The notes under the pieces: model-generated
Told to the model about the DNA's origin: nothing
What the model saw: the letters and a program-made list of their open reading frames with translations, nothing else
Database searches by the model: none
Origin: Amoebophrya sp. A120
Lineage: Eukaryota > Protista > Dinoflagellata
NCBI GenBank assembly: GCA_905178155.1
Contig: CAJINV010000004.1
Span: 6,364,828-6,428,827 of the forward strand
DNA: 64,000 nt
Direction of reading: 5' to 3'
Program-made: the position numbers and the translations under genes
Shown: piece after piece, positions 2,064 through 51,448 of the stretch
How positions within the stretch are numbered: position 1 is the first letter of the stretch
Layout: every line of letters begins with the position of its first letter

Positions 2064-4821
2064 TCATGCCATTGCCACCACCTCAAGCATCCGCTCATTA
2101 AAATCGGCTCCATTCGGAATGTACTCAAGAAAAGAGGACCGACATGTTCCTGCGCCGTTCTCCGCCTCAGAAGCGGAGGAAGCGCTGCTACAGGAAGCGT
2201 GCAACGCTGGCGGGGGGAGCGCAGCTTCTCTCGAGGACGTCGCTCCTCTTTCGAAGTACTTGCGCAGCACGGAAAAAATCGAGTCGTGGGCCAAGACCAG
2301 CACCGGCCGCATTTCCTGTTCGATCTCAATCAGCGTCGTGGTGAGCAGCTGGGCCGTATTGTTCGTAGTTATCTGGTATTTATTTTCCGAAGATCTTTGT
2401 CGCGTCAGTTGCGGACTGGACGGTTGTTCTGTTGACGGATTTGTCTTTATCGCTGACGCTGTTGTAGTTGTTCCAGCACTGCTGTAGTAGTAGCCCAACG
2501 CCGGGCGGATCCGCACACCAAAATCCTCGTAAAAACACGATCCTGAACTAAATTCTAGTGCAGTAGAAGCGGAGAGGGATAAGCTTTGCATCTGGTCTTT
2601 TGCTGTTGTTTCCGCGGACGAAAGGGTAGCAGCTTCCTCGTGGTCTTTAGCACCGCCACTTGTTTCCTGTTCTACAACCTCCTCAGAACCGCTTGTCAGA
2701 CCGTCCAGCATGATCTGCAGCACCATCTCCTGGTCCGAGTTTAACAAGGGGCTGAAAATGACTAGATCTTCCGCGGACAACACCTCTTGGTCGTCAACAG
2801 CGTCTTCAGTATAAAAATCAAGCCCCTGCCTCGCAGAGCAGAACGCCGTACTTCCCCGGACGAACCTGCACAGTGCTTCCGCCCGCGCAACGGTCGAGCA
2901 CGCATCTACAGACGCTAGAAAGACCGGCCGCCGGGACACGTGTATGGAAGCGTCGGAATTGAAATCGTCAAAGTTAAAATAGTTTGTGATGCATAAAATG
3001 CTAGACGCAAAGTGCCTGTCTTGCAGAGCAGCCAACTGAAGCCGATTATAATCCTGTTTGGGGTGTGAGACAGAGCTGCTAAAATAGCATGGCAAAAGCT
3101 GTTTTCCCTGCCCAAACAGCGTGACAAACTGGATTTCCATGCTGCCTAAATTTGTCATGCGCCACTTGCAAACTGGGCTCCAGCTGGTATCGCTTTTTTG
3201 CATTACAGATTCTTTCAACTTTGACGATTTCGATCCTGACATCCACATAACGTGCAAGGCCATCAGATACGGGAGAATGGTAACGGCCGCGCGGCCGAAG
3301 ATGTTGTGTGCCGTAACGTGGGAGGAGAGATTCAGCAGTTTTATGTAGGACACCGCGACATGCTCGTAGTTCGGGGAACTGCTCGTGCGGTGCAGCGACC
3401 GGCGGAAAGAACCTCCGGGCTTGGCAGAAGCTGGTGTTGTACCAATTGCAGCGTCCGTAGTAGTTGGACAAAAACTTGTTATACTCTCCTCGCTACTTTT
3501 CGATACTGCTCCAGAAGTTCTTTCTAATGTTGCGCACGAGTCCTCACCAGTCCTATGATCCGCTGTTCCTTGTTCTAGTACCTGTGGTAGTTGTATCTCT
3601 TCCTTTCCGATTTCTGTTCTCCACACAAATGACCTCCTCTTCAAGCGGCTCGTACACTTGTTCGTAGTGGAGGATCCGTTGCACCAGATCTTCGCGCGCC
3701 TTCCCCCGGTCCAAGCCCGCGTAGTCCGGGCTTTTCTCCAGTTTGATGTTCAGATTCGCGTTCAAGACCTCCGGCTCGTTGCACGTCGACTCCAGAAACA
3801 CAACCCCCACGTGGGCGCCCAAGCGGTCGTACAGCTTTTGCGCGACGCGTTTCCGCCGGTCGCGGGTCGTATTGGTCGCGTCGAAAATCGCACATTTTAA
3901 CCTCTGATATTGCAGCTCCTCAGGGATTTCATGGGGCTGTTGAACTGCACCCGAAGTAGTTGCGCGTTGTGGAGATGATGAGCCTGTGTTTGGAGTCGTG
4001 CTGCCTCCTGGTGCTCCTGTTGGTGTAAGTACACAGGTGGAACTTCTGGGCTTTGACCTGGTTCTCCTCCTAACATGATCCTGCGAGGTCGTAGCAGATG
4101 AAAGCCAGTCCGCGACGTGGTCTAGGACTAGCATGGCCAGCTCCTCGCGTCGGTTTTTCCGCGACGTGTTGGCAGAATCGAAATAGCTGCTGTCCTGCAC
4201 CCCGGTTTCCGTTTCCCGGCGGAAATTCCCCACGTTGAACACCTTTGTTTCGATGTTCAGCCAGTTCAGAAACCGCTGCAGCCGCAACGCGATGAAGCTT
4301 TTCCCGCGCGCGGGCAGGCCGACCATCACGAACACCAATTTTTCCGCGTCCGGGGTGTGGGAGAACCGCGCGACCAGGGAGCGCACGCGGGCCAACTCGG
4401 TGGGAACCGCCGGAACGCTGTCTCGCCGCTCCTGTTTGAGAAGGTTCGGATCTTCGACTCCGGCTTGCAGGTGCGGTGGTCTCAGGGTGGGCGAGGGCGA
4501 GGCCGCGGAGGCTGGATTTGGCTCAACACCCGTAGCGGCCGTCTCGGTGGTTGTGCAACCCCGATGCCCGACCTCCGGGGAGGAACCTCGACTGGGCGGC
4601 GCGGTCATAATTTCAGGCACGATTTCTTGTGCTACAGATAAGTTGCAACAGGTCTCCGGATACAGGTTTCTTTTCTTGCAAGAGCAGGAGTTTAGACGAG
4701 GAAATAAAACCGATCGAAGAAAACAAGAGGGTGCAGCCTGTGGATCAGAAAGAACTGCTGGATCTTCTTGAACTTCGATGCGGTGGGAATGGCCCAACAT
4801 AGGCCCTGCCTTTTGTCTCAT
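2064..4821 (-). CDS. PFKFB: 6-phosphofructo-2-kinase/fructose-2,6-bisphosphatase family protein; phosphatase half degenerate
   Basis: Kinase motifs VMVGLPARGKS, VFNVGNFRR, AIFDATNTTRDRR, FLESTC, KSPDY and SYIKL. ORFs 3553..4839 and 2064..3644 join through a plausible GT-AG intron at 3582-3633, plus the introner at 2946-3246. Confidence 0.85.
2946..3246. mobile_element. Introner family B (non-canonical intron with terminal inverted repeats)
   Basis: IR ggaagcgtcggaattgaaatcgtcaaagtt / aactttgacgatttcgatcctgacatccac, flanked tAT...ATa. Homologous along its length to 12231-12533. Excision gives LHVIHVSRRPVFL. Confidence 0.85.
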
Positions 4822-5049
4822 GATCAATTCCCTCAACAAGAAAAAGTCCGGAGAGCCGGTGGAGCCAGGACACGGGTAGGTAGGAGCAAAGCCAAAGGCT
4901 CACTCGCACTCGTACGTGCCAAAAGTAAAAAAACCGTTAAATAAACCTAAGACACTCCTGCATGAGCGAACCTATTCTTGTGCGGGCCAGCAAGTCACAT
5001 AACCCGTAAAAAGCTTCTGTAAGAGGGCAGCAACCTGTTCGACTGTATT

Positions 5050-7330
5050 CCCATTTCGCAACACTAGGAACGCCTGTAGAAGTTCGCTATTGTCGCTCAG
5101 GGAAACGCAACGCGGCTGCTGTCGTGTGGTCATGATGGTATCTATAGATATACACAGTCGCGCCAGCCCCCAAGCTGCGCGATTTGGTCAGCCTCCCATG
5201 CTACCGGCCCCGCGCGACATGCCCCTAGCCGGGGTTGCGCGCCCGGTGAATTTCTTGCAACATTCCCGCAACAAGAGCGCGCCCCTATTGCAGAACAGCC
5301 CGCGGCGCCGCCGGGCGATGCACTCCGGCCGGCGCCGGCCGCTGAAGCCAATTCACCGGGGCGGGCGCCCCGCGGGATGCGGGGCCGCCCGAGGCGCGCG
5401 CGCCCCGCCGCGCTGCGGGTTCGGGAGCCCAGTACGCGGGCCCGGCCAACAATGCGGGGCCGGCCTGGCGCGCGGCGCAATTAGCCAGGCCGCAGCGCGC
5501 GCCGCACCCGCGCGGGCAACCACCCTAAGGGCGGGCGGAGGCGCCGGCGGCCGGGCGGGGCCAGGCCAAACCAAAGGGGCCGGCCCGACGCCAGCCGGTG
5601 GCGTCGTGCTTCCTCGCTGGGCGTGCTGCGCTGCGTTGTAAGGCTGGCCCGGGGCTGGGTTTCAACAAGAGGCGCGCCACTTCGTTTGTTTTGCGTCCTG
5701 CCTTCTCAAAATTATACTTTTCTGCTTCTCTGGCACTTGGTTTGATTTCGGGGCGATGGCCTTCGGCGGGCTTGGCAGCGGGCCGGCCTGGCCACCGGCT
5801 GGCGGGGCGAACCCCGCACGGCCCCTCCCGCCTTGGTCGTCTAGGTTGCGAGCTTTCCGGAGTCGCGGCAAATTTGCCGCGATGCTGCTGCGACGTTTCC
5901 GGGGGGGGCCTTCGCCCGCAAGCGTTTGGAATTTGGCGGCCGTGCTTGCCCCCTGGAAGTGCCCGGCAACCGCCCCCCCCCGCCCCGGCGCCTTCCTGCT
6001 AAATCCCCCCGGAAGCACAGCGGCCCGCGCGGTTTTTTTTTGTCCAGCAGGAGCGGGCCGAAGTGCCGCGCGGCCGTGTTTTTCGCCGCTGCTAGCAGCC
6101 CGGGGCCGCGCAGCCCTTTTCGCTCCCGCGCGGCTCGCTTGGCCTCCTTCGCCAAGTCTGCCCGCCGTCCTGGGGCCGGCAAACAGTTGCCGCGGCCTCT
6201 GCTACCCTCCAGCGCAACAACGAACATGTGAGAACAGCGGGACGCCCGTATCGAGCGCGCTCCCCAGAATTGAGTAAATCGGGCCGCAGACGCAAAGCCC
6301 GGACGCAAGGCCCGCGGCGTACAAATAGATAGGCCCCCGCCATCTGGACAGAGGCAAACGGCCCCCGGAGTCCGGCAGGGCTACCGCCAGGAAAGAGGCG
6401 CCGCAAACCCACGGCCGCCGCGCGTCCCGTAGCCGCGCACAGCAGCGCACACGCCCCGCCATTGAGGCACGCCCCTCCCCTTGCGCGGGTTCCGCGGGAG
6501 ACGGCAGCCATCCCCCCCGGGGGGAGATGCCTATGCTGGGGCCCATGCCTATGCTGGCTGCCTTGCTAGTTTCGCCATTTGTTCATAGGGCAGAGCGCTT
6601 TCCAAGACAGCGCAACTCAGAAAACTAATGGGCCCCAGGTCCGCCGTGTGCGCGCCCCGGGTATAAGGGTGGTCGGCGCACTTCCCACGCAACCACGCGG
6701 CGCACACATGCGTCCTCTGCTTCTTAGGCTTCGGAACCTTGGGGGCCGGGGCCGGGGTGGGTCGCAGCCGGACGCGGCGCCACCGGTTCCCGGGGGGCCG
6801 CCGCGGGGCGCTTGTTTGAACCTTGCTACCTAGCCTATACCTTTTTCAGCTCCACCGCCAAATCATGGAAGCCCTTCGCCACCTCGTTGCGGGCCTGTTT
6901 GGTTTGGCTGGCGCCTTGAACCGCAGTGGCAAAGAGACCGGGCAAATTGACTACCGCTGCGGCCTTCTTGAACCGAGCCTGTCCTGCGCCGATTCTGGGA
7001 GGCCCCCGGAATCGGCCTTGGTCAAACTCCAGACCCGGCCGGGCGTCTTGCCGCCCGCGGCAGGGCAAGGGCTTCCGGTAAGGCCAGGCGGCCAGGCTTC
7101 TCACCCAACAGCGCCCGAAACATTCGCCCGACCTGCCCGCGTTGCCTTGCACCAGCGCCGCCCCGCCACTTCCGGCAAAATCTCTGCGGGCCCTTGGAGC
7201 ACAGGCACGGGACGCGCCTGCGCGGCGTTTGAACGGGGCACGCCACCCCCCAGACAATGCATGGGCTGCGGGGCCTACATTTTGTGAGCCCCGTGGTCAC
7301 CACTGAATCTCTCGAAGCAATGCAGTGTAG
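5050..7330. other. Very GC-rich island without a convincing gene; possible decayed repeat or TE relic
   Basis: Abrupt compositional shift. Only Ala/Arg/Gly/Pro-rich overlapping ORFs on both strands. Boundaries approximate. Confidence 0.45.
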
Positions 7331-7479: not shown

Positions 7480-9066
7480 TTACGACTGCGAAGTCACAAC
7501 AACATGGAGATATTGGTCAAGGTAACTGCAATGGAGCGCCAACCAATGTAGGGGCGTGTCGAGCGACACATCAAGACCTTGAACCAGGAAGCGACAAGCA
7601 GCATTGTACGCCCTGCGCTGGAAGTAGTGTCTGTGTTGTGCCGCCTCTGTGGAAAAAAGTCCTTCGTTGCTACTTCCTACACCTGCTCTGCTTTCCGTTT
7701 GCAAAATACTTGTTCCGTCTCCGTTGTCACCTTTCTCATCTTCGCGTGACTGTGACACGACCGACATCACTTTTCTTCTTTCGTAACAAAGGAAAGGCAG
7801 CTTCTCGCAGACCACGTCTCCTAGCAAAATCGGTTCGTTCGTATCTTCGGAAAACACCTCGGAGGAAGTGAGCAGCGCCGGGCAACTGGAGCTCGTTTTC
7901 GCCAGCGGAAGGTCGTTGGGATCGGTGTAGGAGTTTCTATTTGCAGTTTGCCTCCCTGGAGGAGATGAGCCCGCACCCTCCACCTGTGCCGAAAGCTCCT
8001 GCTGTGACCGGACGACGAAATGAAACTTGATCGCGATTCTCCTCCAGTCTCTCCAGGTCTTGGGGTACTGCAGCTGCGTTTGCAGCAAAAACGCGTACTG
8101 CGCAAAATTGGGGAGGCCGGGGTTCGTGACCGTATCTAACAAATCCAGCTGCGACTTCATCGGCAGTCGCATGAACGCGTTGGCGCTGCCGTACCACAGA
8201 AAGACCGCTTTGCGCAGCGCATTCAGGTAGCAGGTGTGGAACCGCTTCTCATCCGTCAGCGCCACGTCGGCAAACGACTCCTGCACCTCCTGCGACGCCA
8301 GCATTACCTCGCTCGGAGCGCGGAAGTGCACCGTAAGTTCCCAGATCGTGTCGCCCGTTGCGGCGGAATTTTCGACGAAGTCTAAGACGGATGATGCCTC
8401 TTCTCCTGTTTCCTTTTCATCTTGTGCGGTGTCTGCAGTTTTTCTCTCTTCACTGCAGAAAAGCTGCCGGCGCATTTTCAATTCGCGCGGATGGGAGGTG
8501 GAGGTTGTAGCTTCGAATGTCGTGGTATTTCCACCGCGTGCTGCAGCTTTATTTGTGGAGGTCTTCACGACACCCGAGTCGCCAGCACGGGCTGAAACCG
8601 TACTTCGACCCAGCTCCGTCAGCGAGTTAGTACCACCACGGGAATAAACATCACGCGGTTGACCTCCCGGGCTGTTGATGCCTTGCGTCGCAGAGAGACC
8701 ACACGTCGACGTCCCGCTGGTACCGAACAGAATGTCCCGGGTTACGCCGACCGGCAACCGCCAGTCGAGCACCGCGCCGCTGCTGTGGCTGGACTCGAGC
8801 CAAACTTCCGCTAACGGCGAGGCCTGGCTGCCGAACCGGGGTGCGAGAAACGCACGAAACCGCGCGTGCAGGGATGGGTACAGCGACGGCCAGTAACTGA
8901 GACGGGAGACGAGGGCGTAGTACGGTGATGGGACCGACGAGTCCGCCACCTCATCGGACGATACCCGGAAGCAACACAAAATGCACGAGGTTCCAAACAA
9001 GCGCCCACGGAAATCCTCTTCGAGAAGCTCGCGGGGAGCGCAACCCGCTGCGTCGAAACCTCCCAT
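7480..9066 (-). CDS. ATG5: Autophagy protein 5
   Basis: Motifs SRLSYWP, VWLE, LDWRLPVGVTRDIL, WELTVHF, YLNALRKAVFLWYGS and VQGLDVSLDTPLHWLALHCSYLDQYLHVVV. First in-frame ATG is at 9066; the ORF stays open to 9132. Confidence 0.9.
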   Translation of the reverse strand: MGGFDAAGCAPRELLEEDFRGRLFGTSCILCCFRVSSDEVADSSVPSPYYALVSRLSYWPSLYPSLHARFRAFLAPRFGSQASPLAEVWLESSHSSGAVLDWRLPVGVTRDILFGTSGTSTCGLSATQGINSPGGQPRDVYSRGGTNSLTELGRSTVSARAGDSGVVKTSTNKAAARGGNTTTFEATTSTSHPRELKMRRQLFCSEERKTADTAQDEKETGEEASSVLDFVENSAATGDTIWELTVHFRAPSEVMLASQEVQESFADVALTDEKRFHTCYLNALRKAVFLWYGSANAFMRLPMKSQLDLLDTVTNPGLPNFAQYAFLLQTQLQYPKTWRDWRRIAIKFHFVVRSQQELSAQVEGAGSSPPGRQTANRNSYTDPNDLPLAKTSSSCPALLTSSEVFSEDTNEPILLGDVVCEKLPFLCYERRKVMSVVSQSREDEKGDNGDGTSILQTESRAGVGSSNEGLFSTEAAQHRHYFQRRAYNAACRFLVQGLDVSLDTPLHWLALHCSYLDQYLHVVVTSQS

Positions 9067-9565
9067 GATAATGGCACTGCTGGATGTTGCGACTAGTGAT
9101 CCCCAAATGGAATTCAAAAAGTGTGTTTTCACGACCCACGGCGGCTTTTATTTCATGATAGCTCGTAGTTGTATCCGCGGCTTTCGGTCCTTTGCGCATT
9201 TGACTGTGGCAACTGACCGCCTCGACTCAACATCTCCAGACACAGTAATATCAGAGCAGATCACTCCCGCCGCACCCATGTAGTAAACGAAGAGACGCAA
9301 AATGCGAACGATACAGCGGAACACCAAATGTATATTGCAATTTAGTGTGCTTCTGCACGACTACTTACTGCTGCATTCACAGCAATATTAGAGGTGGTTT
9401 TTGTCGCTTGTAGGTGTCGCTGGTAGGGTGATTTTCACAGTACAACTTCTGCTGACCAAATAATCGTCAACATCAGTTGAGTCTTCACATTTTTACACTG
9501 GATGAATATGCTGGTGTTGTAAGTAGTCTTCGTCCTTCCCAACAAGAAGAAGAAAATGACCTTCA

Positions 9566-33478: not shown

Positions 33479-34885
33479 TTAAGGCATCGCCAACGCTGAG
33501 CTAGTGCGGAATGTTACTAGGCACTGATACGTGTTCCAAAACAGCCCGACTCCGGCGTCCCAAGTGGCGCGAAAATGCGGGGAAAACAGACGCTGAATGA
33601 GCGTGAAGTTTAAAAAATCCGAGATCGGCCAGACCCACCAGCTGGTAAGGTAGATCTCCCAAAAATTCTCCCGAAAACGGAACTGGGACAGCCAAAAAAC
33701 TGTGCGAACCGCCTCTGCGAAAGAAATCTGGTGTCCTTGTGCTGCAAGGTGTGAATCAACAGAAGCATCGACTGCGGTCTTGTGAATTGTACTCCGACTG
33801 CTCTTACCGCCTTCGAGGTTCTGCGCTGCGGCAAGCGCTGCACAAACAGAAACAGTGACTACAACCTCCTCTCCGGCTGAGGCCCTCGAGCGTACTAGCG
33901 CAGCCTCGTCGTCGTCACCTTCTGCTAAAGATCTGGACGTCGTTTCGCCCGACATCGATGGCCTTGCGCGACAGACTGGGGTCGCGGCACCAAACAGTTT
34001 CGCCAAGTCAGCCTCTAGCCGTGAAAGCTCGCGGGCGTTCATGAAGGTGGCTACTTGCGGTTGCAGTTGCAGACCCACATGATCGTACGGGTCGTCGTCC
34101 ACTGGGGCGCCGCGCGGAATGTGGCCACTGGTTCTCTTGCCATCAACATCCTCCTCGCCGTCCTCTTGGTCCACACCTCGTTCTTCAACCCCAAAGCCAG
34201 AAGTTGCATGAACTTTCTGTAAACACGCCGGCGTTCTTGCCGCGGGCGTGACAGCGTTTCGCAGTGCCGCGCGTCCAGCCGAGCTTGTGGGAAAAAGCGC
34301 GAGGTATTTGGGCCACAAAAACCTCTCCCAGATCACCTCCCAGGTGAGGTGCGCGGTCGTGCTACAGGTCACGAACAGCCAAATGCTCAAAGGAGTCCAC
34401 GCGAGCTGCATAAACAAAACCTTCTTTCCCAGAACACGAAAGTCCACGGATTTTGCACTTGATCTTACACGACGGCTGCTGGTGCTGCTCCCGGCCGCCG
34501 CGTCCGTCGCTGAAGTAGATGCCGCAGGCGGTGCCGTGACGTGTTTATTTGTGTTCATCCCATGTAGAAGTTGTTCTTGAGGCGTATTGCGTGCAACAGC
34601 CGTCGCGCCCATCGTGCGACGGTCTTGCAGGCCACTTGTGACGTCGAATAGGCGATCGGCTAGTCGGTAGGCCTGCACGAGACATCCCGTGCAAACAGGC
34701 GCGGCGCTCATCACGCCAAGGGTGCGGCACGGGTTCCAAGGCTTGTCGTGCATGAACAGGTGCTCGAGACGGTTGGCCGCGACGTCCGTAACACCGTATA
34801 ACCCCACACCCAAGAGCAGCGGCGCACCATTTGGGTGGTTCTCGTAGAAAGACGCGACGCGCGCACGAAAAGCAGACAGCCGCAT
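33479..34885 (-). CDS. Mpv17/PMP22 family membrane protein
   Basis: Motifs GLYGVTDVAAN, WNPCRT, KKVLFMQLAWTP, FWEIYLTSWWVWPISDFLNF and VGLFWNTY. Confidence 0.85.
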   Translation of the reverse strand: MRLSAFRARVASFYENHPNGAPLLLGVGLYGVTDVAANRLEHLFMHDKPWNPCRTLGVMSAAPVCTGCLVQAYRLADRLFDVTSGLQDRRTMGATAVARNTPQEQLLHGMNTNKHVTAPPAASTSATDAAAGSSTSSRRVRSSAKSVDFRVLGKKVLFMQLAWTPLSIWLFVTCSTTAHLTWEVIWERFLWPKYLALFPTSSAGRAALRNAVTPAARTPACLQKVHATSGFGVEERGVDQEDGEEDVDGKRTSGHIPRGAPVDDDPYDHVGLQLQPQVATFMNARELSRLEADLAKLFGAATPVCRARPSMSGETTSRSLAEGDDDEAALVRSRASAGEEVVVTVSVCAALAAAQNLEGGKSSRSTIHKTAVDASVDSHLAAQGHQISFAEAVRTVFWLSQFRFRENFWEIYLTSWWVWPISDFLNFTLIQRLFSPHFRATWDAGVGLFWNTYQCLVTFRTSSALAMP

Positions 34886-35099
34886 GTTGGGAGGTAGTAT
34901 TTAGTGCGGAGTAAGAACTTGACACGGGCAGGCAGTTTTTCATGTAAAAAAGCAAGGACGCCCCCGCCCATGCGTTTTGTATCAAAGACAACAACTATTG
35001 GAGTTGTAAGCTCCAGGGGAGCATAGCTACGATGAGGGCGATTCGGGTCAGTCGCTTTTGCCTTCGCCCTAATCATGCGGCCTGGGGAAGCACTGGAAA

Positions 35100-39543: not shown

Positions 39544-40507
39544 TCAGGCCTTCACAAACTCATACACCCCGTTCTCCTCGTCAATGTCCAGGTCGCAGTC
39601 GAACGCCTTGCACATTTCGAACAGCAATTGCCGCGAGCCTTTCTTCTCCACGTCGTCCGTGAACACGGAGTAAGCCTTATCCCGTGTAAAACCGTCCCCA
39701 ACCCAGAGTTATTGGATGCCTAAAATGTTTCTCATGCGCAAACCCATGAGGAGCGTTTTCTAGTCGTGTTTTGAGATTTGTCATGCTCGAATCAGCATGA
39801 TAAGCCCGAGCTGTGATGCTGCTTCACTAGCTAAAGTTACGACTGCATTAAATGCTGAAATTTGTCATGCGCAGCACCCAAAGCTTTTTGATTTGTCTAG
39901 CAGATTTCCCACATTGACTCTGGGGAAGTGGGCACGTTTTTACTCAGCATACGTCTCCCCTTCCACAAGCGAGGCCAGGTTCATTTCCAGGTCCAGTTTC
40001 CAATCCTCGCGGATTTGCTTGTCAGGGTCAAGTATCAACGGTAAATATCCCTGGATGTCTGGCAGACTGTAAACTTGTCATGCAGGTTTTCCATGACCCC
40101 TGAGTTCTGGAATGCGGGGACTAGCATGCCAGACTCTGCTTGGTCTCTATCATGCCTATCCTGCATGAGAAACTCCCTCCCAACGTGGTCGAAAGTGGAC
40201 ACCAGCTTTTGGCACTCATGCAACACAGATTTTTGCATGATTCGAATTTAGCATGACAAGTTGCGATCTTCCAGACCCAGACATATTTGCAATCCATATC
40301 GAGCGACTTGCTGTCGAAATTCGCCTTCGCATCGTACGCGAAGTCGTATTCCTCCTCCCGATCTGTATTCGTACTGCCTGCTGCAGCTGCTCCGAGGGGC
40401 GGATTTGTTTGCTGTGGGAGGAGGAATTGCTGGGTGGAGGTGGTCATCTGTCGCTGATTTACATGACTTTCAGGTTGTACTATATGTCCAGAAGTCGCCC
40501 CGCCCAC
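39544..40507 (-). CDS. Hypothetical protein, 3 exons
   Basis: Exons ..YDFAYDAKANFDSKSLD / LPDIQGYLPLILDPDK..GETY / KAYSVFTDD..YEFVKA*, separated by two introners. Confidence 0.55.
39681..39948. mobile_element. Introner family C
   Basis: Imperfect IR gtaaaaccgtccccaacccagagttattg / cattgactctggggaagtgggcacgtttttac, flanked tAT...ATa. Excision gives GETY|KAYS. Confidence 0.75.
40049..40295. mobile_element. Introner family A with one decayed IR
   Basis: Interior is closely similar to 18489-18744. Right IR intact, left IR degenerate. Confidence 0.8.
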
Positions 40508-40704
40508 TTGCTGCGGATAATTTGGTGCAAATTTGCTCGTCTGTGGCTGCGCAGGTGGCGGCTCTGTTTTTGATTTTATTTTACTAATTATGCGGAGTGT
40601 GGAATAATTCTCAGTACAAGAATGCGCCCTCTACGCAGCTTCGCAAGCCTACGCTACCGCGACAAAATCACAGAATCAACATGAAAAGACTCAGAGTCGG
40701 TGTA

Positions 40705-43700
40705 TCAAAATTCAGTACGTGCTGCCGTCTCCCTCTTATTCAAAAACGCACTTGTGCCGGTCAACACCAGCTCCTGAATCGCGGTGGCGCACTCTAACCG
40801 CGCCTCCTCCGTCCCCCCCGAGATTTCGCAGGTCTGCTGCTTCTCGCGCAGCTTGATCTCGGTCACTTGGAAGTGCTGCTTCAACTGCTTCATCATTTTG
40901 CCCTGCTTGCCAATAATCACCGCATGCTTGTCCTTCGGACAATCGATCTTCAACTTGTTATTTGTTGTGCTATTACTTGTCGTCGCTTGCTGCTGACCCA
41001 GGACATGATCGACGCTATGATCTCCGAAAAGCTGTGCCGGCAACTGACTGTTCCTAGAGGGTAATGTTGTCGTAGTGCCACCTGCCGCGGGGGCCACTGC
41101 GGACGAGGACGGTCTGCTATTTGTTCTACCGTTGTGAAGTAGAGAAGAGGATTTTGATGCGCGGCTACTGTTTTCCTGCTGCATCGCAATCCTCTGCTGT
41201 TGTAGCACTTCCTGCCGACGCCGCTCCTCCTCCTCCTGCTGCTGCCGCAAGATCTCCGCGCTTTCAATTCGGTGTCTTTCATGATCTTCTCGTTCTCTTT
41301 GTCTTTCACGATCTTCTCTCCTTCGCCTTTCCTCCTCCTCCCTCTCTAGTTGCTCCTGCTCTCTCCGCAATTTTTCCTGGCGTTCCACTTCCTGGAGCTC
41401 TTCCCGCAACTTCCTTTCTACCTCTGACTGCCGCTCTTTCCTCTCGGCGCTTTCCCGCCGCTTCTGCAGTATTTCCGCTTCCCGCATTTTACGTTCCTCC
41501 TCGTCGGCGAGCGCGTTGTCAATCACCTGCTCGATGTACATCTGACACTGTTGCCGGTCCTTCAGGCAATTCCCGCCGATTACGGTGATCACGCCGCTCT
41601 CGTCCACTTTCAAATCCTCTAAATGAAAATCCTCCACAATCTGCCGGGCCGTGGCGCCCCCGCGCCCGAGCACGGTGTTGCGCAGCGAGGGCGGAATTTC
41701 AAACTGCAGAATCTCCACGTTCTGGTGTTGCTGCTGGTTCATCATGGAATTGTTGAAAAATGTTGACATGTTTCTGCTTTTTGAGGAGCTGCTGTTCTTG
41801 TGCTTGTTCAGAAGATGGACACTTGCAGCTCCTGGCTGATTCTCGTCCACCTCCATGTCCACATTTCTAGTTCCCTGCTGCTCGTTATAATTTTCATCAA
41901 CTACCACTGCCTGCCCTAAAGAAGCTCTACCACCGCCGGGGGGCAACAAGCCCCCGCCTTTAATCATACTCGCAGTCGGCGATCGCACAGTTGTGCCACG
42001 GAGTAGAGACTCCTGCAAGGACTGCTGCTTTTGCAAGTAGTCCCGGTGACCGCCGATGGTTTGGATCCGGGCATTCGGCACGTCGTCCTGGTCATGAAAG
42101 TGTTGGTGTTGCCCTCCTTGCAGATGTTGCTGTTGGTCCCCACCACCGCCTCTCTCGTTCACGCTGTCCACGTTCGCCGAGCGACAGGCGTCTAAAATCA
42201 CCAATTTCGCCGTCTCCACCATCTCCTCGCTTCTTCCCAAAATTTCCACATTGATGACCTCCGCATTCTGGTCCATGAAATTCAGCGTGATCAAATCAAA
42301 CTCCTGCTCCAGTTTCCGCAAGTTGCTACCCCCAGGGCCGATCACGCGCCCCTTGCACTCCGCGGGAATCTTGAACCGAATCAGTTTCGGCACGTGGTCA
42401 GCTAAAGTGCCGGCGGGAGGGGCCTGGTCGGTTATCGCAATCGACATCTCGTCTAACAAGTGCAGCCGGGCGGCCTTCGCTTGAAACAACGCGGCGGACA
42501 AACAGTTGATGTCCACACCTGTGGTAAGGAATTTTTTCAGTTTGGATCGTATATCGATGTATGGCTCGTATGGCTACAAATCAATGTAGTTGAAAATGAA
42601 AATCATGATCGAAGCGATTCAAGAAAGAACTCCATGAAAACAAGAAACCTTCACTTAAATCACCGCGACAACTACAGCAAATGCAAGTCATAATCTTCCG
42701 CATCAAAATATAATACTTCAGTATCTGTACCAGAGTTCTTTGCGTCCAGTTGCACCGCGGAGATTCCGGTTCTGCTCCCGGCGACTTTCAGATCCATCAG
42801 TCCGAGATACTTTTCCAAGTCCGTCACGTCTGTTAGAATGATCTGCGCTTCCTCCCCGACAAAATACGCCGGAAGCGGAAATTCCGGATTAAACAGACTC
42901 GGGGATAAGGAGCTGGAGTTGTAGTTCGCTCTGTCCATCTCTACTAACTTCGCAAAATCAATCTTCCCGGCGTCCAGGAGCCCGAGCTTCACGGAGGCGA
43001 TCGGGGTCTTGACCGGGACGCCCGCGTCCGCCAGGGCGAGCGAACCGCCGCAGACAGACGCCATGCTCGTCCCCCCGCAGTTCTCCGTGATAAACGACTC
43101 CACCCGGATGGTGTAGGGGAATTCTTCTTCGTCTGGAAGAGAAGGCTTCAGGGCCCGCTCCGCGAAGTTCCCGTGCCCGATCTCCCGCTTCTGGTTTTTT
43201 TGTTTTGTTTCCCGGGTTGTGGTACTGTTCAACATCCGTTTCGCCGCGTCGGAAGAGGAGATCATTGCCGGGTAAGAGCACTGCATGTAGAACCGCCGGG
43301 CTGTTGATGATGAGCTACTAGAAGAAGAAGAAGAAGAGCCACCAAATTGCTGCTGCGCTGTTGCATTCGGATTTGCGTTGTTCACGCCCCCGCCGTCTTG
43401 CAAAGGTCCGTTTTCAATTCTTAGCATGCCACTGCTGTCCGCTAGAGTCGTCGTGGCGAACGTCTGCGTATCGCCGTTCGTGAAGACCGCGCTGCCGTGC
43501 GGGCCGGGTAGATATTTTAAATCCATGGAAACCTCCCGCACCTCGTGGATCTGCCGTCCGCAAATCCGCTTCCGCGTCAGTTTCACGTAGGCCGCCATCG
43601 CCTCGCCGCAAACCAACTCAAACGCCTTTTGGATCAGGGATTCCGGAAACGCGTGCAGCCACGCCGGACGGATGTGGAGCTTGAAGAGTTCGTCGAGTAA

Positions 43701-45864
43701 CGCCAGATGTTTTGTCGGCTTGTGCTTCGACAAGTGGTTCAGAAAGTAGTGCTCGGTGATCACTTTCAAATTCTTCAATCGCATCTGTCCTACCAACGTA
43801 TCCTGTGCAAAAGTATCGTACTCGTAGCCGTAGTAATTGCAATCATGCATCACATTTTTTTTTCTCAAGCTAAATCCGCATTACAAATTTCATTTCTCAT
43901 GCTAAAAAAATTTGTAATGCATTTATACGAGTACGATACTTTTGCGGTTCATACAACGTCTGCAACAGCATCTCGTCGCTGTCCATCGTGAGGGCGGAGA
44001 TCGACGGTTGCTCTTGCTTCTTTTTCCCCTTCCGCTCGCCGAGTTTCAGGAAGCTGTGGCAGAGAAAGGTGATGGAGTTTTGCGCCAACGTCATGGCGTA
44101 CACGAGTTCCGCCTCTGTGCAAAAGTCCGCGTTCACCTCCAAGACCTGCAGAGCCGTTTTCGTTCCCACACAATAGACCACCAAATCAGCATTTTTCTTC
44201 TCTTCGTAACTCGGGAACAGAATGAACTCCATCTTCATATTTTGTTCCCACTTTCCCATACTCTGTTTCTCGATATCCGACAAGGTTTCCAACTCGCCCT
44301 CAACCATCGGGCGGTAGAAGCCCGCGACCAGACAGCCCGCCACCGGCTCGTCCATGGGGATGTCTGAAAGCCACAGCGCGCACGCCCCGGCGTTCAAGGC
44401 CAAGGGTTGCGGTAGGTGATCCTTATCCGCGGACAGACAGGTCAGCAGCACCTGCGTTTCCTGCTTCCACCAGAGCGCCAACCGTTGGCGAAACGGGGAC
44501 TCCGTGAGCCGGGACACCAACAGCTCGTGGTTTTCCAAAAACTGCGCGTTTCGGTTCCCCGCGCGGTCTTTCACCAGGGTTTTCCCTAGAGCGGAGGAGC
44601 GTTCCTTGTATTCCACTGTGAGGTTGGAAAAATTCGAATCGCCGGCACCCGACGTCGCTCCTGACGCGGTCGCGGTGCCGAGCACAAAGGTGCCGCCCAT
44701 CCCGCAAAACGCCGCCCCGTTGGCCTGTCGGGCGATGTGCCCGGTCTCGAAAACCAGCACGCGGTCAGCCGCGACCCGGCACTTCATAATCGTTTTCTCC
44801 GGGTATTTGGGGTCCTGCGACATCCGGATCTCGTGGTAAAACTGCACCGGGGCCAGACCGGCGGACACTTCCTCCTCGCTCGGTTGATAATTGGGCATCA
44901 CATTCATCGGCTGCGATGGGTGTAGCTGCGTAGTTCCCCCTGCTCCCGGTGGACTACCGGTAGTTAACCCCGGAGTGACCAGACGGTGACTGACTGCCCT
45001 CGAGACCACCTCTGGTTGCAGCTGTTGCGCCAGAACACCTTCTTGCTGGTGTCCAGCTCCGGCGGAGTTGTTGTCAGTATTGTCATTCTGCGAAAAGGAC
45101 GGGGATATGATGTTGTCCTCGTCGTCATCCGCCTGCGGCCCCTTTATTCCGTGACCACTGTCACTGACACTCATGCGCTGTTCTTGTTGGTCCTCATTCT
45201 TCTGCCGGTCGTGCTCTACCAGTTGTACTTCTCGTCGGCCCTGTCCAACATCCTGTCGCGCCGCGCTCCTCCGCTTGGAGGAGGACGCTGCTTGTTCTAT
45301 TTGTGCGTTTAAATCCACAACATTCTCGTCTTCGTCCACCGAAATCAGGTCGTCATCGTCCTCGTCCTCCGGATTAGAAATATCTACTTGTTCATTCCCA
45401 TTTCGGTTTTCCTCGCCTGGACCTGGAGCTCCACCGCTGCGGGGAGACGATAACACCTTACTTCCGCCACGTGGTCTACTGCTGCTCCGAACTTCTTCTG
45501 CTACTACCCGGGGAGAGGAGGGCGCGGCTGCTCTCTTAAAAACTCCTCGCCGCGCCTCTTCCCTCGCAGGCTGACTACCGCCACGCAGAGGTTCTTGTCC
45601 CGCCGCCAGCTCTTGCGCACCGCTTTTACTTGTGCCATTTCTGACCGGCGTTCCGGGCGTTCGGTCCTCGGAGAGAACCGGCCCGGCGCTACGACTTCCC
45701 TCATTTTCACCCGAATCAAAATCTTCCTCATCGTCCTCGCTGATCGGGTTCAGGGGGAGTTCTTGATCTACTAGTTGTGCCTCTTGATCAACTGCTGCGG
45801 GGCCCTGTTGTTGTTGGCCATGGCCGCCCGGCTGCCGCAGCGTTATGTGTTGGTCCTGCGCCAC
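40705..45864 (-). CDS. pnp: Polynucleotide phosphorylase-like protein (two RNase PH domains plus three KH domains, no S1 seen)
   Basis: Motifs FETGHIARQANGA, LTVEYKER, RICGRQIHEVR, HGSAVFTNGDTQ, REIGHGNFAERAL, FPYTIRV, SMASVCGGSLALADAGVP and MDLKVAGS. GxxG KH loops GPGG, GRGG and GKQG. Introner 43802-43950 and GT-AG intron 42519-42730. 5' end unclear; possibly fused to the upstream gene. Confidence 0.88.
43802..43950. mobile_element. Introner family D (149 bp)
   Basis: IR gcaaaagtatcgtactcgta / tacgagtacgatacttttgc, flanked tAT...ATa. Excision gives QTLY|TLVG. Confidence 0.9.
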
Positions 45865-45931
45865 CCGGCTGCCGTCACTGGAGACGCTCTCGTAAGATCC
45901 GGCCTCGCTTGGTCGGCTCTCCCCGGGTTAT

Positions 45932-46075
45932 GCATTGCAAAAGTATCGCACTAGTATGAATTGCAATACAAATTTCCTCAGCGTGACAAATAAAATTTGT
46001 AATGCGGATTTAACTTGAGAAAGAAATTTGTAATGCGTGAATGGGATTAGTACGAGTACGATACTTTTGCACAGG
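45932..46075. mobile_element. Introner family D (144 bp), opposite orientation to 43802
   Basis: IR tgcaaaagtatcgcactagta / tacgagtacgatacttttgca, flanked tAT...ATa. Confidence 0.88.
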
Positions 46076-48678
46076 ATACGGGTGGTGCAGCGATGTTGAT
46101 AGTGCTCGTCCCTGGCTCATTTTGGTCGGTAGAAAGGATTTCTGCATTCGCCAGATCCGCCTCGTTTTCATCTTGCTCGGCGAGGACAGATATTTCCTTG
46201 TCCTCATCTCCGCCCACAGAAAGCACCGGCTGTTGTATAATGTCCTCTTCGCCAAGAACCTCTTCTTCACCAGCATCTTCGGAACTACCGCTACTACTAC
46301 CCTGCTCCGACGCTTGGTCCTCGTCTTCCCCGCTGATATCCAGCTCTTCGTTCATGTCGTCCGTCACGTATTTCAGCATCTCCCGCCGCATCGTGCTGTC
46401 AAAGGGCACCCCGGTCTGCATACAAAACTCCTCGGGAAACCGGGGAAGACAAAACTCGTCCACAAAGGGGTTCTTCGTGGCGTCTTCTAACCCCTTTTGC
46501 AGGTGCGTCAGGGAGGCCTGTGGAGTTGTTTTCGACCGATTACGAATTTAGAAAAAGTAAAAGAATGAGAATCCGAAAGCGAAACATTTTCTAAAGTCTG
46601 CAAAAATCTTTATCCAAAAAGAGAAAACCTATCCATTACGTTCAGGACGGTGTCCTTGAGCTGTATTGCGTGCATCCCTTTGTAAGCCCCCTCTACGTTA
46701 TGCCGCCCCTTCTTCCCCCCGAACGCCAGCCCGACCGACTGGACGACGTGGCGGCCGTCGCTGGACATAAAGGGTTTCCGCCGGTAGCACTTGTCGGTGC
46801 CCGTGGCCCAAAAGTGCCACCGCGGTTTTAACGCCCGGATCAACTCGCTCACCGCGGGAGAGGCGTTGAATTCGTAATTTTGCGGCAAAAAGTCCCGGTC
46901 CCGATGCAACTCCTCGGCGGGAACCAGGCTGTTTTTTTATTTGGCTTTTGATGATGTTCTGGTGGTGGTGACCGACCAGCATGGTTCATGTGGTTGCAGC
47001 ACAAAGTAAAGATGTAGTAAGTTGCGCCAGCACTAATATGCTGTCCAAATTCGGACACTCCTGGTTGTACACTCCTGGTTGTAAAAACGTTGCATATATT
47101 TTCTTATGAGTACCTTGTCAGCCCGCAGGGTCCCTCGGAGGTCAAGAGCAAATCTACCGGTTTTCCGTCTGCCAACTCATATGGATTGCAACTATGTCTG
47201 GGTCTGGAAGGTCGCAACTTGTCATGCTGTTTTTGGTTTCTAGGGAAATTTGTATTGCATGACCAGCAAGAGGGGTCCAGTTTGTGCTGTGCAGACAATG
47301 GACTTCTCATGCGGAAGGCGCATCAGGAAGCCCTCTAAAAGTCTGTGATGCTCGGCCATGCACTACAGCCATCATGGGTCATAAGAAATATGCATGACAA
47401 GTCTTGCACTCTTCCAGACCCAGACATATTTGCATTTGATAACTCAATAATGTGTTCGATGATCGGGCGGTTGTAAGCCAGGCCCGGGCTGCCGTCGGCC
47501 TGCGCCCGAAAATTACACCGGCAAAATTGCAGCGTTTTGTCAACCTCCTCCAATGGCTGGCCCACCCCCCACCCGTTGAACGTGAACCAGTCGATCTGCC
47601 CGTGGCAGATGTTGTCCTTATCCGGGTGCACAATCCGCGGAATGGTTCCGGACAGGTAGGCCACGCGCATGCCCTGGATCTCCTTGATGCCGCACCCGCC
47701 AATGTAGTGCAGGTTGTCGGTCACCTTCATCCCGTCGCTGAAGCCCTTCTTGGACATGTGTGGCTTGTGAAACGCGGTGGAATCCTGGTCCAGGAAAAAC
47801 AGGGGGATGTCGCACTTAATGCTGCCGTTCTGTGGTATGTGATAAATCAAATTTTTCTTTCTTGTTCACAAAGAACAGCGAGCTTGTTGAGCTGCCAGAG
47901 AAAGTGAAGAAGCAGCCTTGAGGACAAAAGTCGCGCTTATCGAGATCCATGCAACGTGCACGCGCACGCGTGCAACAAAAAATGTTTTCCATGACGAATA
48001 CACTGCCCTATGAAAAAATAAACGAATACCGCCATGAAGGGGGCCATCCGCGCGGCATTGGTGTCCGACATGAACTTCCCAACGCAGAAACAAACATCCA
48101 GCGGCCCCTTGCTTTTGTGCACAGCCGCAATTCGAGTGTACAGCGGTTGCAGATCGCCGTCGCACGTTCCCGCGAACAGAAGGCGGCGAACAAACGGCTT
48201 CGGTTTCGGAGGTCCTCGCTGGTTGCTTGCAATTATAGTACTGCTTGACGTCGCTGGTTGATGTTCAACTTCGACTTTCTGTTTTTTCTGCAGCGGTGGC
48301 TGCGACACTGGCTCCTCACGGTCGAAGGGGTCGTCTATGCGAGTGCACAAACCCCCTTCCCCGTTATTTGTCATGCAAAATGCAAAATCCAGTTGCTGCC
48401 TTGTGGCACTGTTTGCATGACGAAATCATCTGGAGGCCCAAATACTACTAAAATCAACGCATGAGCTTGTCATGCACAGCCTTCACGCGTGCTGGTGTTT
48501 CTATCGCTGTTCACGCCGTACAATTTATTACAAATGAGGGGGAGAGGGAGTTGTGCACCACTCTCGTATCATCGCTCCGCCGCTTGGTCTTCCGGCTCGC
48601 TGCGGGATCGATACTGCTGTTTCCTGCCGACGCCATGTTGTCGCTGCTTGTGGGCGGGGGCGGCGGCGGTGGGGGCAT
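46076..48678 (-). CDS. CWF19L1: CWF19-like 1/Drn1 N-terminal metallophosphoesterase-like domain protein; CwfJ C-terminal domains not seen
   Basis: Motifs LLFAGTCDG, VHKSKGPLDVCFCVGKF, NLHYIGGCG, RVAYLSG, VDLLLTSE, VSELIRALKPRWHF and YRRKPF. GT-AG introns 47830-48029, 46929-47113 and 46518-46639, plus introners at 48339 and 47183. Confidence 0.8.
47183..47438. mobile_element. Introner family A (256 bp), same orientation as 14479
   Basis: IR atgtctgggtctggaag / cttccagacccagacat. Excision gives IIELYELADGK. Confidence 0.92.
48339..48565. mobile_element. Introner, E-like family
   Basis: IR gtgcacaaacccccttccccgttatttgt / acaaatgagggggagagggagttgtgcac, flanked tAT...GTa (one repeat diverged). 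Excision joins RRSDD to DDPF in frame. Confidence 0.75.
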
Positions 48679-51448
48679 TCGGCAAGGCTTGTACTTGTAG
48701 TACTGCTGGGAAAGCTGCCGCTCGTCTCAAAATCTTATTCACGTGCTCTTACCAAAGCATTCAGCGGGCCATTTTATTTTCATGATCATCGACGTGGTAC
48801 GATTTACGCACTATATTTCTTTCATCTGTTGATGTTTCTTCAACGTAGTTATAGAAGTACTGTTGTATCTATCTAAAATCCAGATCGTGGCGCGGTCACA
48901 GAGGACAAATGACTCCAGAAAAATTTGTACTCGGCAAACTGAAAAAAGAACTACGTCCACGATCCAAAAAATTGCACGTGGATCCCTTCCCTCCTCTTCC
49001 TTCGTGCCTGATGTAGGTGTTCGGTAAAAATCAAAAACTTAGAGTTGCGACGTGTACGTCGCGCTAACAAGAAGAAACGCCAACGATTCAGGTGGACGGC
49101 ACTCAACATAATTTACTTACACGCTTCTCTTTATTTGTGAACCAATCTATCGGCAAAACCGTGACTCACAATGAGATCTTGTGGCAGCACATTAGTATGA
49201 TTTTATGAGTATGGGATCATCAACAAATCGGGATCGTCACTCGCAAGCTTCTGTCGTACACCATCAGTTGCACCATGATCGTCCTCTTGAACACTGCGTG
49301 TGTGTGGTAGACACGACGGACACGAAAAAGCTTTGTCCGTTGTTCCCATTGCCTTGACATCGAGGACAGCACATGCGATAGATATTGGACGAAACCTCTA
49401 ATATGATTCAAACAACGAAGTCGAATATCTTATTGTGGTTAGTACCAAAGTGAGCTCCGTTCGGCTCTAGAAACCCACGGTGAAAATATTTCTTGCTGGA
49501 AAAATAAAAAATGACGAATTAAACTCGGAAAATTAACTGGTTAAAAACACGGAGACCGCACACTAAAGCTAAAAAAGTTTTCTTAAAAATTTCAGGTACA
49601 AAAAACCTAGGAGAAAGCAGTCCTTCTCCTTCCAAACCCTGCTACGCATTATTTCGCAGCGCAGAGCCAAAAATTCTTAAAATTTCAGAACGCCATAGTT
49701 CTTGTCGTCGTGCCTGTCTCTTTCAGTCGCCTTCTTTTTTTCTGTAAACACCAAAACCGTCGTGGTCCACAACATCCACCCTGGATGGCTCTTTTGTTGC
49801 TATGACGAGTGCTGGGAAGAATGGGCGGGTCCAAGATGATACATCAACTCCGTACCAGCTGCACTAGCTCCCCGCCGTGCAAAGCCACACGAGGACCCTG
49901 GCTTCCCTTCCTCCCGAAAGCCTCCTAACACGACCTCCGGAAGTAGGACCTGCACACGCTCCTCCGTGTCGTCCACCAGCTCTCGACCACGTATTCTGCT
50001 CGGCCAGGACATGATCCTGACGTGGTTGCGACCTGCACCGACCTTGTCGTGCTGCTGGGGTCGGTCCTTTGTTCACTCTGCTGCACAACGAGTGCCTCCG
50101 CAACAACTCCGGCCGTCGTGCGACCTTGATGTTCCGTTTGTCCTACTCCTGCTGGTCCTCGTCACACAAACTTCAGCTCAAAGAAGACGATGCAAAAAAT
50201 GATGACCGCAATGAGGAAGAAGGTGAAAATCAAATTCAGGTACAGTTCGTTCATCTTGAGGTAGAAGCTGGTGGCTGTTGTTGTAGAAACAAATTCACTT
50301 AAAAGTTCAAAGTCTGGCTGTCAACAAAATTCAAATTACTAGTGGGGCTAAATATGAAGAGGATGAGAGAATATATGAAGTCGTGCAAAAATGATGGGAA
50401 TTTCATGCGGTTCTGAGGGTGAGGTCCTGTTTGATGAAATATGGCAAAGGAGTTGTAGTACATGCGACTTTCATAGTACCTTCTTTTACACGCACAGATG
50501 AATACTAGTGGACGCTGCGCAGGCACAGCACATCTTTCTTTACGACGAATAAAAATCCTGTACGAGTGCGAGTCTAGGTTTCACGAACGAATTCAAATAG
50601 TTTGCAGTACGAGGTCGACGAGTGGCGCATTGATTTGGTGCCTCTTTTATCCGCCATTTTTATTTCCGATATGGCTTCTATTGCATAGCATTCATTGTTA
50701 TACCGATCTGTTCTATCAACGACAGACCGACCTCCTGAATACTGCGAAAAGAATACACGTGGACGAATCGTGAGACGTTCTTCCAGTGACCGAAGATTCC
50801 TGTTTGACTTTGCTGCCGGAGCAGTCAGAGGCTCATGTGAATGATAGGATCAAAACATGCCGGACAAAGACCTGAAACACAAAAAGTACATGCTGGACTC
50901 CATCATGCCCAGTGGCAGTGCCGCACAGCAGGGCCTGGGAAGATTGCGCGCTCTGTGTCGCACTCAATTTGCGTTTTCTTCTTTTCTTTTTACAGACAAC
51001 ACATTGTCTCTCCGAACATATACTTAGTTATACAGCTGCTTTATTCCTGGTGTTGAAGACGCGTTTTGCATTTTTAGCCTACCGCCTGTAACACAGCTAC
51101 CGGCGCGGTGAGCCTCTATACAGTCATTCTTGAATCAGACAAAAGCCACATTCATGCACGGCAAAGGGAAATCAAATGAAAAGCAAAAGCATTTATGCAA
51201 AAAAGAAACGACGCCTCTATTTCAAATATTCGCATTATGCAGGCAGAGCTGATTGGCAAATGCTCGCTTATGCTTGATTTCGTTCGGTTCCTTCGTGAAA
51301 CAGTTTTCGCCGCAATTTTTCGTACTTAATATCGGCAAAAGCTATCCATCTTTCTCGTTCGTTTCTCTCAACATCAAAATAAGTCGTGCATTGCTCTGCA
51401 AAAAAGAAACATGTAGAATAAAAGGTCCAAAAACAAAAAAAATCACTC

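Follow-up and report, generated by a model that had tools for sequence, protein, structure and literature searches.

A CWF19L1-type domain fused to a probable plastid-type PNPase in Amoebophrya and Hematodinium: a candidate debranch-and-degrade protein

In the eukaryotes that have been studied, debranching and exonucleolytic decay of introns are carried out by separate proteins (PMC12238851). In the human intron-lariat spliceosome, CWF19L1 (also C19L1; Drn1 in yeast) tethers DBR1 near the extracted branch point. In vitro, its metallophosphoesterase (MPP) domain attaches to a conserved peptide of DBR1 (peptide I); a similar motif occurs in SYF1 (PMC13736545). The MPP family of CWF19L1 and Drn1 is called catalytically dead (PMC4105757). 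Amoebophrya sp. A120 is a syndinian parasite without a plastid in which more than 60% of the introns are non-canonical; many of these are introners, which contain inverted repeats and 3-5-nucleotide (nt) direct repeats that span the splice boundary (PMC7789003). Here we describe an A120 gene in a stretch of 64,000 nucleotides (contig CAJINV010000004.1, positions 6,364,828 to 6,428,827 of the forward strand; "the window" is this whole stretch). It joins a non-catalytic MPP domain of the CWF19L1 type to a polynucleotide phosphorylase (PNPase) core, likely of algal-plastid ancestry, and to three KH domains, and it is shared with Hematodinium. Our reading, to which we give a probability of about one half, is that the protein likely works outside organelles as a debranch-and-degrade unit.

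The gene lies on the minus strand, where a 12-exon model from 48636 to 39544 forms a single frame of 2282 amino acids (aa) with no internal stop. The encoded parts follow in the order CWF19L1 pseudo-MPP domain, acidic linker, PNPase core and three KH domains, with exons 2-6 tied together by homology and exons 6-10 by RNA. A preliminary description had proposed such a fusion, with no intergenic gap between its CWF19L1-like and PNPase parts. This is borne out by an RNA junction and by four relatives from other organisms or samples, and the fusion is almost certainly real. The RNA sequences are contigs from X1 and X2, two runs of one sample; their RNA status is a guess, and they were taken as RNA because introns present in the DNA-like run X5 are absent from their contigs. 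Besides the linker junction discussed below, contigs of both runs contain the joins 43954/43793, 42729/42516 and 40719/40563. The preliminary description had also ended the gene at 40705, which is too early: the intron at 40564-40718 is spliced, and the open reading frame (ORF) runs to 39544. The raw RNA of a further run, X8, gave 45 partial reads, none of which mapped outside repeats; it comes from another strain or species and is uninformative. The parts of the gene are as follows.

48569..48636, minus strand: exon 1, predicted ATG at 48636, basic N-terminal extension; an RNA contig covers 48573-49000
48331..48568, minus strand: intron 1, introner-like, inverted ends, imperfect 5-nt direct repeat; removal restores the frame; predicted
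48030..48330, minus strand: exon 2, start of the MPP domain (aa 70, about 48190); RNA contig 48036-48330
47830..48029, minus strand: intron 2, GT-AG, predicted
47442..47829, minus strand: exon 3, MPP domain; 49 bits against a profile made without A120
47175..47441, minus strand: intron 3, introner; element 47180-47441 plus one 5-nt direct repeat
47114..47174, minus strand: exon 4, MPP domain
46929..47113, minus strand: intron 4, GT-AG, predicted
46640..46928, minus strand: exon 5, MPP domain; holds the start Met of the public model (46768)
46518..46639, minus strand: intron 5, GT-AG, in the public model; joins the MPP exons to the remainder
46079..46517, minus strand: exon 6, end of the MPP domain (to about 46465) and start of the acidic linker
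45924..46078, minus strand: intron 6, introner, TAT...ATA element plus one ACCCG; RNA junction
43954..45923, minus strand: exon 7, rest of the linker and first RNase PH domain from about 44796
43794..43953, minus strand: intron 7, sister introner in opposite orientation; RNA junction
42729..43793, minus strand: exon 8, helical region and second RNase PH domain; Lys codon 42810-42812 at the position of E. coli D486
42517..42728, minus strand: intron 8, GT-AG if shifted by two bases; RNA junction
40719..42516, minus strand: exon 9, end of the PNPase core, KH1 from 42384, KH2 from 41709, charged coil, KH3 from 40953
40564..40718, minus strand: intron 9, GT-AG; RNA junction
40298..40563, minus strand: exon 10, low-complexity
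40027..40297, minus strand: intron 10, introner
39949..40026, minus strand: exon 11, start of a small C-terminal domain with an R3H-like lead
39544..39669, minus strand: exon 12, carries the stop codon

The public A120 protein CAD7946247.1 (1956 aa) is the suffix of our model from aa 327. It starts at a Met within the MPP domain (46768), which we call wrong, and exons 1-4 and part of exon 5 (46769-48636) are missing. The fusion is therefore hidden in the A120 proteome; the model of strain A25 is whole. The absence of exons 1-4 from the public model, together with steps in RNA depth, could be taken to mean that two neighbouring genes were misjoined by annotation or read-through. This is largely refuted, since A25, complete transcript ORFs and an intron-free ORF carry the fusion too, and since the MPP profile described next crosses intron 5.

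The upstream exons had been called CWF19L1-like, and the PDB and profile matches of exons 2-6 agree. Exon 2 has only two PDB matches, human and C. elegans CWF19L1 (human residues 7-52, E 2.8e-4), and the best of four weak PDB matches of exon 5 is C. elegans CWF19L1 172-224 (E 0.24). Exon 3 alone found none among the 47 candidates of a word-index search and none in the PDB. A profile of 13 relatives, with A120 left out, scores 188 bits against aa 70-390 of the model over 272 of its 284 positions; it spans intron 5 by 23 positions into exon 6 (adding 11 bits), reaching a motif that the pattern used finds in 12 of the 13. By fold, the N-terminal domain resembles CWF19L1 and Dbr1, with human CWF19L1 as the best match (E 2.6e-12). 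The CWF19L1 chain modelled in the matched human spliceosome structure comprises 275 residues, which is the size of the MPP domain alone. No Pfam family matched exons 2-6, Pfam having no model for this MPP domain. CwfJ_C_1 and CwfJ_C_2 are absent by Pfam from the four fusion proteins scanned (P0001, P0002, P0003 and P0166); the paralogues P0167 and P0176 score strongly for them.

Relatives were found by phmmer over 1.84 billion representatives, in searches that were not exhaustive. The preliminary description had suggested looking for the fusion in relatives, and it was found in A25, in a Hematodinium transcript and in two environmental sequences. After A120 itself, the top ranks are A25 CAD7968231.1 (2043 aa), the ORF of GEMP01002379.1 (1249 aa, marked complete) and a JGI protein. 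The A25 protein holds the CWF19L1 N-domain at 85-325 (E 1.2e-9 to human), the PNPase and the KH domains in one chain. GEMP01 is a Hematodinium prefix (PMC6642578). GEMP01002440.1 is a second full-length transcript variant in the same cluster as GEMP01002379.1, with the same domain order. This order is also found in the environmental sequences, P0152 (1268 aa) and an uninterrupted ORF of 1254 codons in L001. A word-index search for long PNPases, made with the first RNase PH region, returned only the A120 protein (1 of 2408), at 100% identity, the remaining relatives having come from the profile search, and the Atlas gave no usable match for the whole of P0003. A genome-contig scan had a single match, judged to be chance. 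The ORF of P0152 reads LAQG (residues 1-4) ahead of its likely start Met, which would fit a dinoflagellate spliced leader translated in frame and would then mark a full-length fused mRNA. In L001 (6220 bases) the intron-free fusion ORF is followed by 2.4 kb (3828-6220) without an ATG-started ORF of 100 aa, which is either a long 3' untranslated region or intron-free genomic DNA.

Run over 165 proteins, the N-domain profile had five matches, all with PNPase. Among proteins of 518-2000 aa the same domain was matched 18 times: two fusions, eight proteins with CwfJ and eight with neither. From these sequences, the fusion looks confined to syndinian-like organisms. A second group, P0170-P0175 and P0183-P0185, consists of proteins of 550-610 aa with a CWF19L1 MPP domain and a C-terminal half without CwfJ, one with a weak PDZ match and one with a zinc knuckle; one cluster of such proteins contains a Prorocentrum cordatum protein. 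Dinoflagellates thus seem to have put the MPP domain to new use on more than one occasion.

The C-terminal part had been described as a PNPase with three KH domains, and this is what was found: the core of the A120 fusion has two RNase PH domains, and three GxxG KH motifs are present in each of the five fusions. For the helical domain between the two RNase PH domains, PF03726 gives E 0.073 in P0003 and no match in A120 or A25, and alignment to solved PNPases is weak there. S1 (PF00575) is absent from the four fusions scanned by Pfam and present in P0011 and P0023. In all fusions a small related C-terminal domain takes its place (39544-40026 in the window, 3627-3824 in L001). Its 60 aa are predicted as helix-strand-helix-strand-strand (pLDDT 84), a topology that fits R3H, with the RxxxH motif not conserved; an Atlas lead at 0.76 goes to a cluster of which 44% is R3H, and Foldseek had no match at E 0.001. 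In E. coli PNPase the metal ligands are D486, D492 and K494, and H403 acts at the transition state (PMC2723993). A120 retains the equivalents of H403, D492 and K494 and has Lys at that of D486, where 42 of the 43 sequences with the motif have Asp. The Lys is confirmed by both RNA and DNA contigs, with no other letter over 42729-43793. The phosphate loop of A120 is changed as well, and the FFRR-type loop is absent. The four other fusions (P0002, P0003, P0152 and P0166) keep the equivalents of D486, D492 and K494. As the Lys stands at a metal-binding site, the A120 copy may be weak or inactive, and its phosphorolytic activity is likely reduced or lost. It is possible, though we would not bet on it, that the A120 protein is an inactive RNA-binding scaffold made of two pseudo-enzyme parts, while the A25 and Hematodinium copies are still nucleases, which is compatible with the debranch-and-degrade reading. 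A120 is the only copy with this Lys, has the longest branch of the PNPase tree (1.67), and its linker has grown to 504 aa. Against this, its other three catalytic residues are kept and its full frame of 2282 codons is intact and transcribed.

The ancestry of the core was examined in a tree of 31 rows (35 matches with at least 500 of the 580 core residues and one bacterial gene, minus five near-duplicates). The five fusion PNPases form one group (100/98), which nests (100/99) with PNPases of Thalassionema (a diatom), Scyphosphaera (a haptophyte) and Bigelowiella (a chlorarachniophyte), and the enclosing group (100/100) includes the chickpea chloroplast PNPase and Galdieria. The placement is kept (99) after the two long Amoebophrya rows are dropped, and a grouping of the fusions with the outgroup, the other 13 bacterial-type rows, is rejected (p-AU 0.019). 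A plastid-type ancestry of the core is thus probable on this tree. Eukaryotic PNPases are normally organellar, and the protein might accordingly be a mitochondrial PNPase with an incidental N-terminal domain. Genes for mitochondrial DNA expression are indeed kept in Amoebophrya (PMC7789003), yet we consider this improbable: the core groups with plastid-type enzymes, and in three relatives (Hematodinium and the environmental copies) the MPP domain begins, by inspection, at residue 4-9, which leaves no room for a targeting peptide. PNPase is listed among the chlamydia-like genes of red and green plastid lineages (PMC2394758, Table 1). Amoebophrya and Hematodinium, the hosts of this gene, have no plastid (PMC7789003, PMC6482013), and HemD is the sole plastid-derived protein reported for Amoebophrya AT5 (PMC6482013).

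The linker introner is an ordinary member of its family, a later insertion that is spliced out constitutively. Its element is 150 nt long (46078-45929, minus strand), with TAT...ATA ends, the direct repeat ACCCG on either side and inverted-repeat arms at 45929-45961 and 46046-46078 (33 nt, 79%), where the preliminary description had placed an inverted-repeat element. Excision of 45924-46078 (155 nt, the element plus one ACCCG) brings the reading frame back. This cut, the join 46079/45923, is found in both of the spanning contigs listed (runs X1 and X2) and is also used by CAD7946247.1. The sister introner at 43799-43953, in reverse orientation and 81% identical over 103 nt, follows the same direct-repeat rule (intron 43794-43953). 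Twelve elements of this anatomy (5-nt direct repeat, TAT...ATA ends) lie in the window between 12228 and 60234, and two shuffles gave 0 and 0. The twelve fall into at least three internal sequence types, with perfect or near-perfect repeats in ten. The shared anatomy and the repeats give a simple rule for predicting splice points. The intron 6 introner is repeated in the genome, with a DNA-run depth of 42,000-51,000 compared with about 25 in the flanks; in the bin of intron 1 the depth is 9233 compared with about 25.

Two other junctions had been proposed here, and neither is seen among the contig pieces listed for X1 and X2. One was removal of 45932-46075, said to join the two frames and, by a TATA rule, to create the stop GTA TAA; this 144-nt cut gives a frameshift instead and does not produce the stop, which by inspection a cut two bases further would give. 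The other, a GT-AG pair (46079..45919), does exist: its 161-nt cut is in frame and reads through, with a product two codons shorter than that of the 155-nt cut. Since the contigs listed show the 155-nt in-frame cut, the stop junction was rejected, as was the GT-AG junction as main form. It had further been suggested that the introner is a switch, alternative excision selecting a truncated CWF19L1-N protein or the fusion. The in-frame GT-AG pair would offer an alternative, and minor forms are conceivable because contigs, on which the spanning evidence rests, drop rare variants. We regard a switch as highly improbable: the observed splice is precise to the direct repeat and in frame, the sister introner obeys the same rule, relatives show only the fused form, and with the GT-AG form reading through as well neither cut gives an on/off choice. 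The introner had been put at the domain junction, with about 230 open codons ahead of the first ATG of the PNPase ORF. It lies at aa 515, inside the linker of 504 aa (aa 387-891), and the first ATG of the ORF 45927-43897 is codon 252. Against the 504 aa of A120, the linker measures 264 aa in A25 and has a length of 40-54 aa in the remaining relatives, so the introner is a late insertion and does not mark a domain boundary.

With regard to function, the link to intron turnover drawn earlier stays plausible and is strengthened by the binding of DBR1 to the human CWF19L1 MPP domain, reported in 2026. Two points weaken the further idea of a protein that answers to an introner-rich genome: sharing with Hematodinium makes the fusion older than the strain-specific introners, and of all the copies that of A120 is the most degenerate. 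As an origin of the fusion, a response to introners was rejected, again because Hematodinium shares it. Given the binding of the human domain to a DBR1 peptide, the likely job of the fusion is to hand over debranched introns to a 3'-5' nuclease. By analogy with the human data, the MPP domain would dock DBR1 or the similar peptide of SYF1, bringing the PNPase to the site where lariats open. The nuclease, loaded through its three KH domains, would then degrade debranched introns processively from their 3' ends. Substrates would be the lariats of cis-introns and possibly Y-branched by-products of spliced-leader trans-splicing. The protein may form trimers, and its partner domain and basic motifs suggest a nuclear location. 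The chances of such a role in intron decay are about even. The main rival is general RNA decay in nucleus or cytosol (quality control of mRNA, rRNA or spliced-leader RNA), with the MPP domain as adaptor for a partner other than DBR1. The lack of CwfJ domains, the broad RNA capture suggested by three KH domains and an R3H-like tail, and the dinoflagellate paralogues, in which unrelated C-terminal parts accompany the MPP domain (of the 18 matches, eight have CwfJ, two PNPase and eight neither), speak for it. The only MPP partners on record in the literature searched are, in the parts available, DBR1 and SYF1, and we think this rival rather unlikely.

It is worth noting that several points weigh against the debranch-and-degrade reading. 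In yeast, intron turnover by Drn1 needs CwfJ residues, which are absent from the fusion, and two MPP aspartates are dispensable (PMC4105757). In core dinoflagellates the N-domain is also joined to other C-terminal parts, so that it may be a general adaptor, and grouping of the five fusions in the tree of this domain is weak (36/7). The Lys and the altered phosphate loop of A120 count here as well. At the gene's 5' end, introns 1-5 have no junction among the RNA contig pieces listed, and contig depth falls from 17 to 8 to 3-5, which fits 3' bias and also an internal start. Finally, the PNPase tree was built from a sample picked by similarity to the query, without named mitochondrial, cyanobacterial, apicomplexan or core-dinoflagellate PNPases, so the tree fits both inheritance from the ancestral plastid and later transfer from an alga. 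With these points in mind we offer, tentatively, the wider view that syndinians may have re-made their lost plastid's RNA-decay enzyme into a phosphorolytic debranch-and-degrade nuclease coupled to the spliceosome; in the introner-flooded A120 the nuclease site would be decaying. Such decay, if true, might let excised hairpin introners persist.

No description of a CWF19L1-PNPase protein was found in the literature searched (most subscription journals lie outside its coverage), and both Amoebophrya proteins are an "unnamed protein product" in NCBI. In the parts available, a 2026 review of dinoflagellate RNA-binding proteins mentions neither PNPase nor CWF19 (PMC12787238), the supplement text of PMC7789003 contains no CWF19, DBR1 or gene ids, and PMC12130899, which treats A120 introners, does not cover this gene. 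Even in humans, where the DBR1-C19L1 tether has only just been described, the step that passes debranched introns to an exonuclease is not settled. A natural fusion of the DBR1 tether to a 3'-5' nuclease points to such a hand-over and offers a single protein to assay. In lineages for which HemD is the one plastid relic reported, the fusion would add another, re-used for nuclear RNA processing, and it puts a name to a candidate for intron turnover in genomes whose share of non-canonical introns is the highest known. If the reading is true, it would amount to a phosphorolytic route, undescribed from other eukaryotes, for introns and for by-products of trans-splicing. Elsewhere in the window, Pfam places ATG5 (7483-9147), 6-phosphofructo-2-kinase (3556-4899) and Mpv17/PMP22 (33482-34900), all on the minus strand, and 14 of the 17 long ORFs scanned had no Pfam family.

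Compared with lariat turnover by DBR1 and an exonuclease, the proposed task is the same; a physical fusion to a phosphorolytic nuclease was not found for that system in the literature searched. The introner of intron 6 has the inverted repeats, 5-nt direct repeat, genomic repetition and non-canonical ends of described Amoebophrya introners (Farhat et al. 2021; Gozashti et al. 2025), and no difference from them was found. With human and C. elegans CWF19L1 and yeast Drn1 the fusion shares the N-terminal pseudo-MPP domain, full length and collinear, but it is without CwfJ_C_1 and CwfJ_C_2 and has a nuclease core in their place. With the chloroplast-type PNPases of plants and algae the fusions share two RNase PH domains, KH and, in four of the five, the catalytic motifs, whereas they are without a targeting extension and S1 and have three KH domains, the added MPP domain and the small C-terminal domain. 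HemD of Amoebophrya and Hematodinium (PMC6482013) offers a parallel in history if the plastid ancestry holds: HemD is a plastid-derived gene that survived the loss of the plastid and was relocated, and the PNPase would then be another. HemD is a metabolic enzyme that stands alone, whereas the PNPase is fused to a spliceosome domain.

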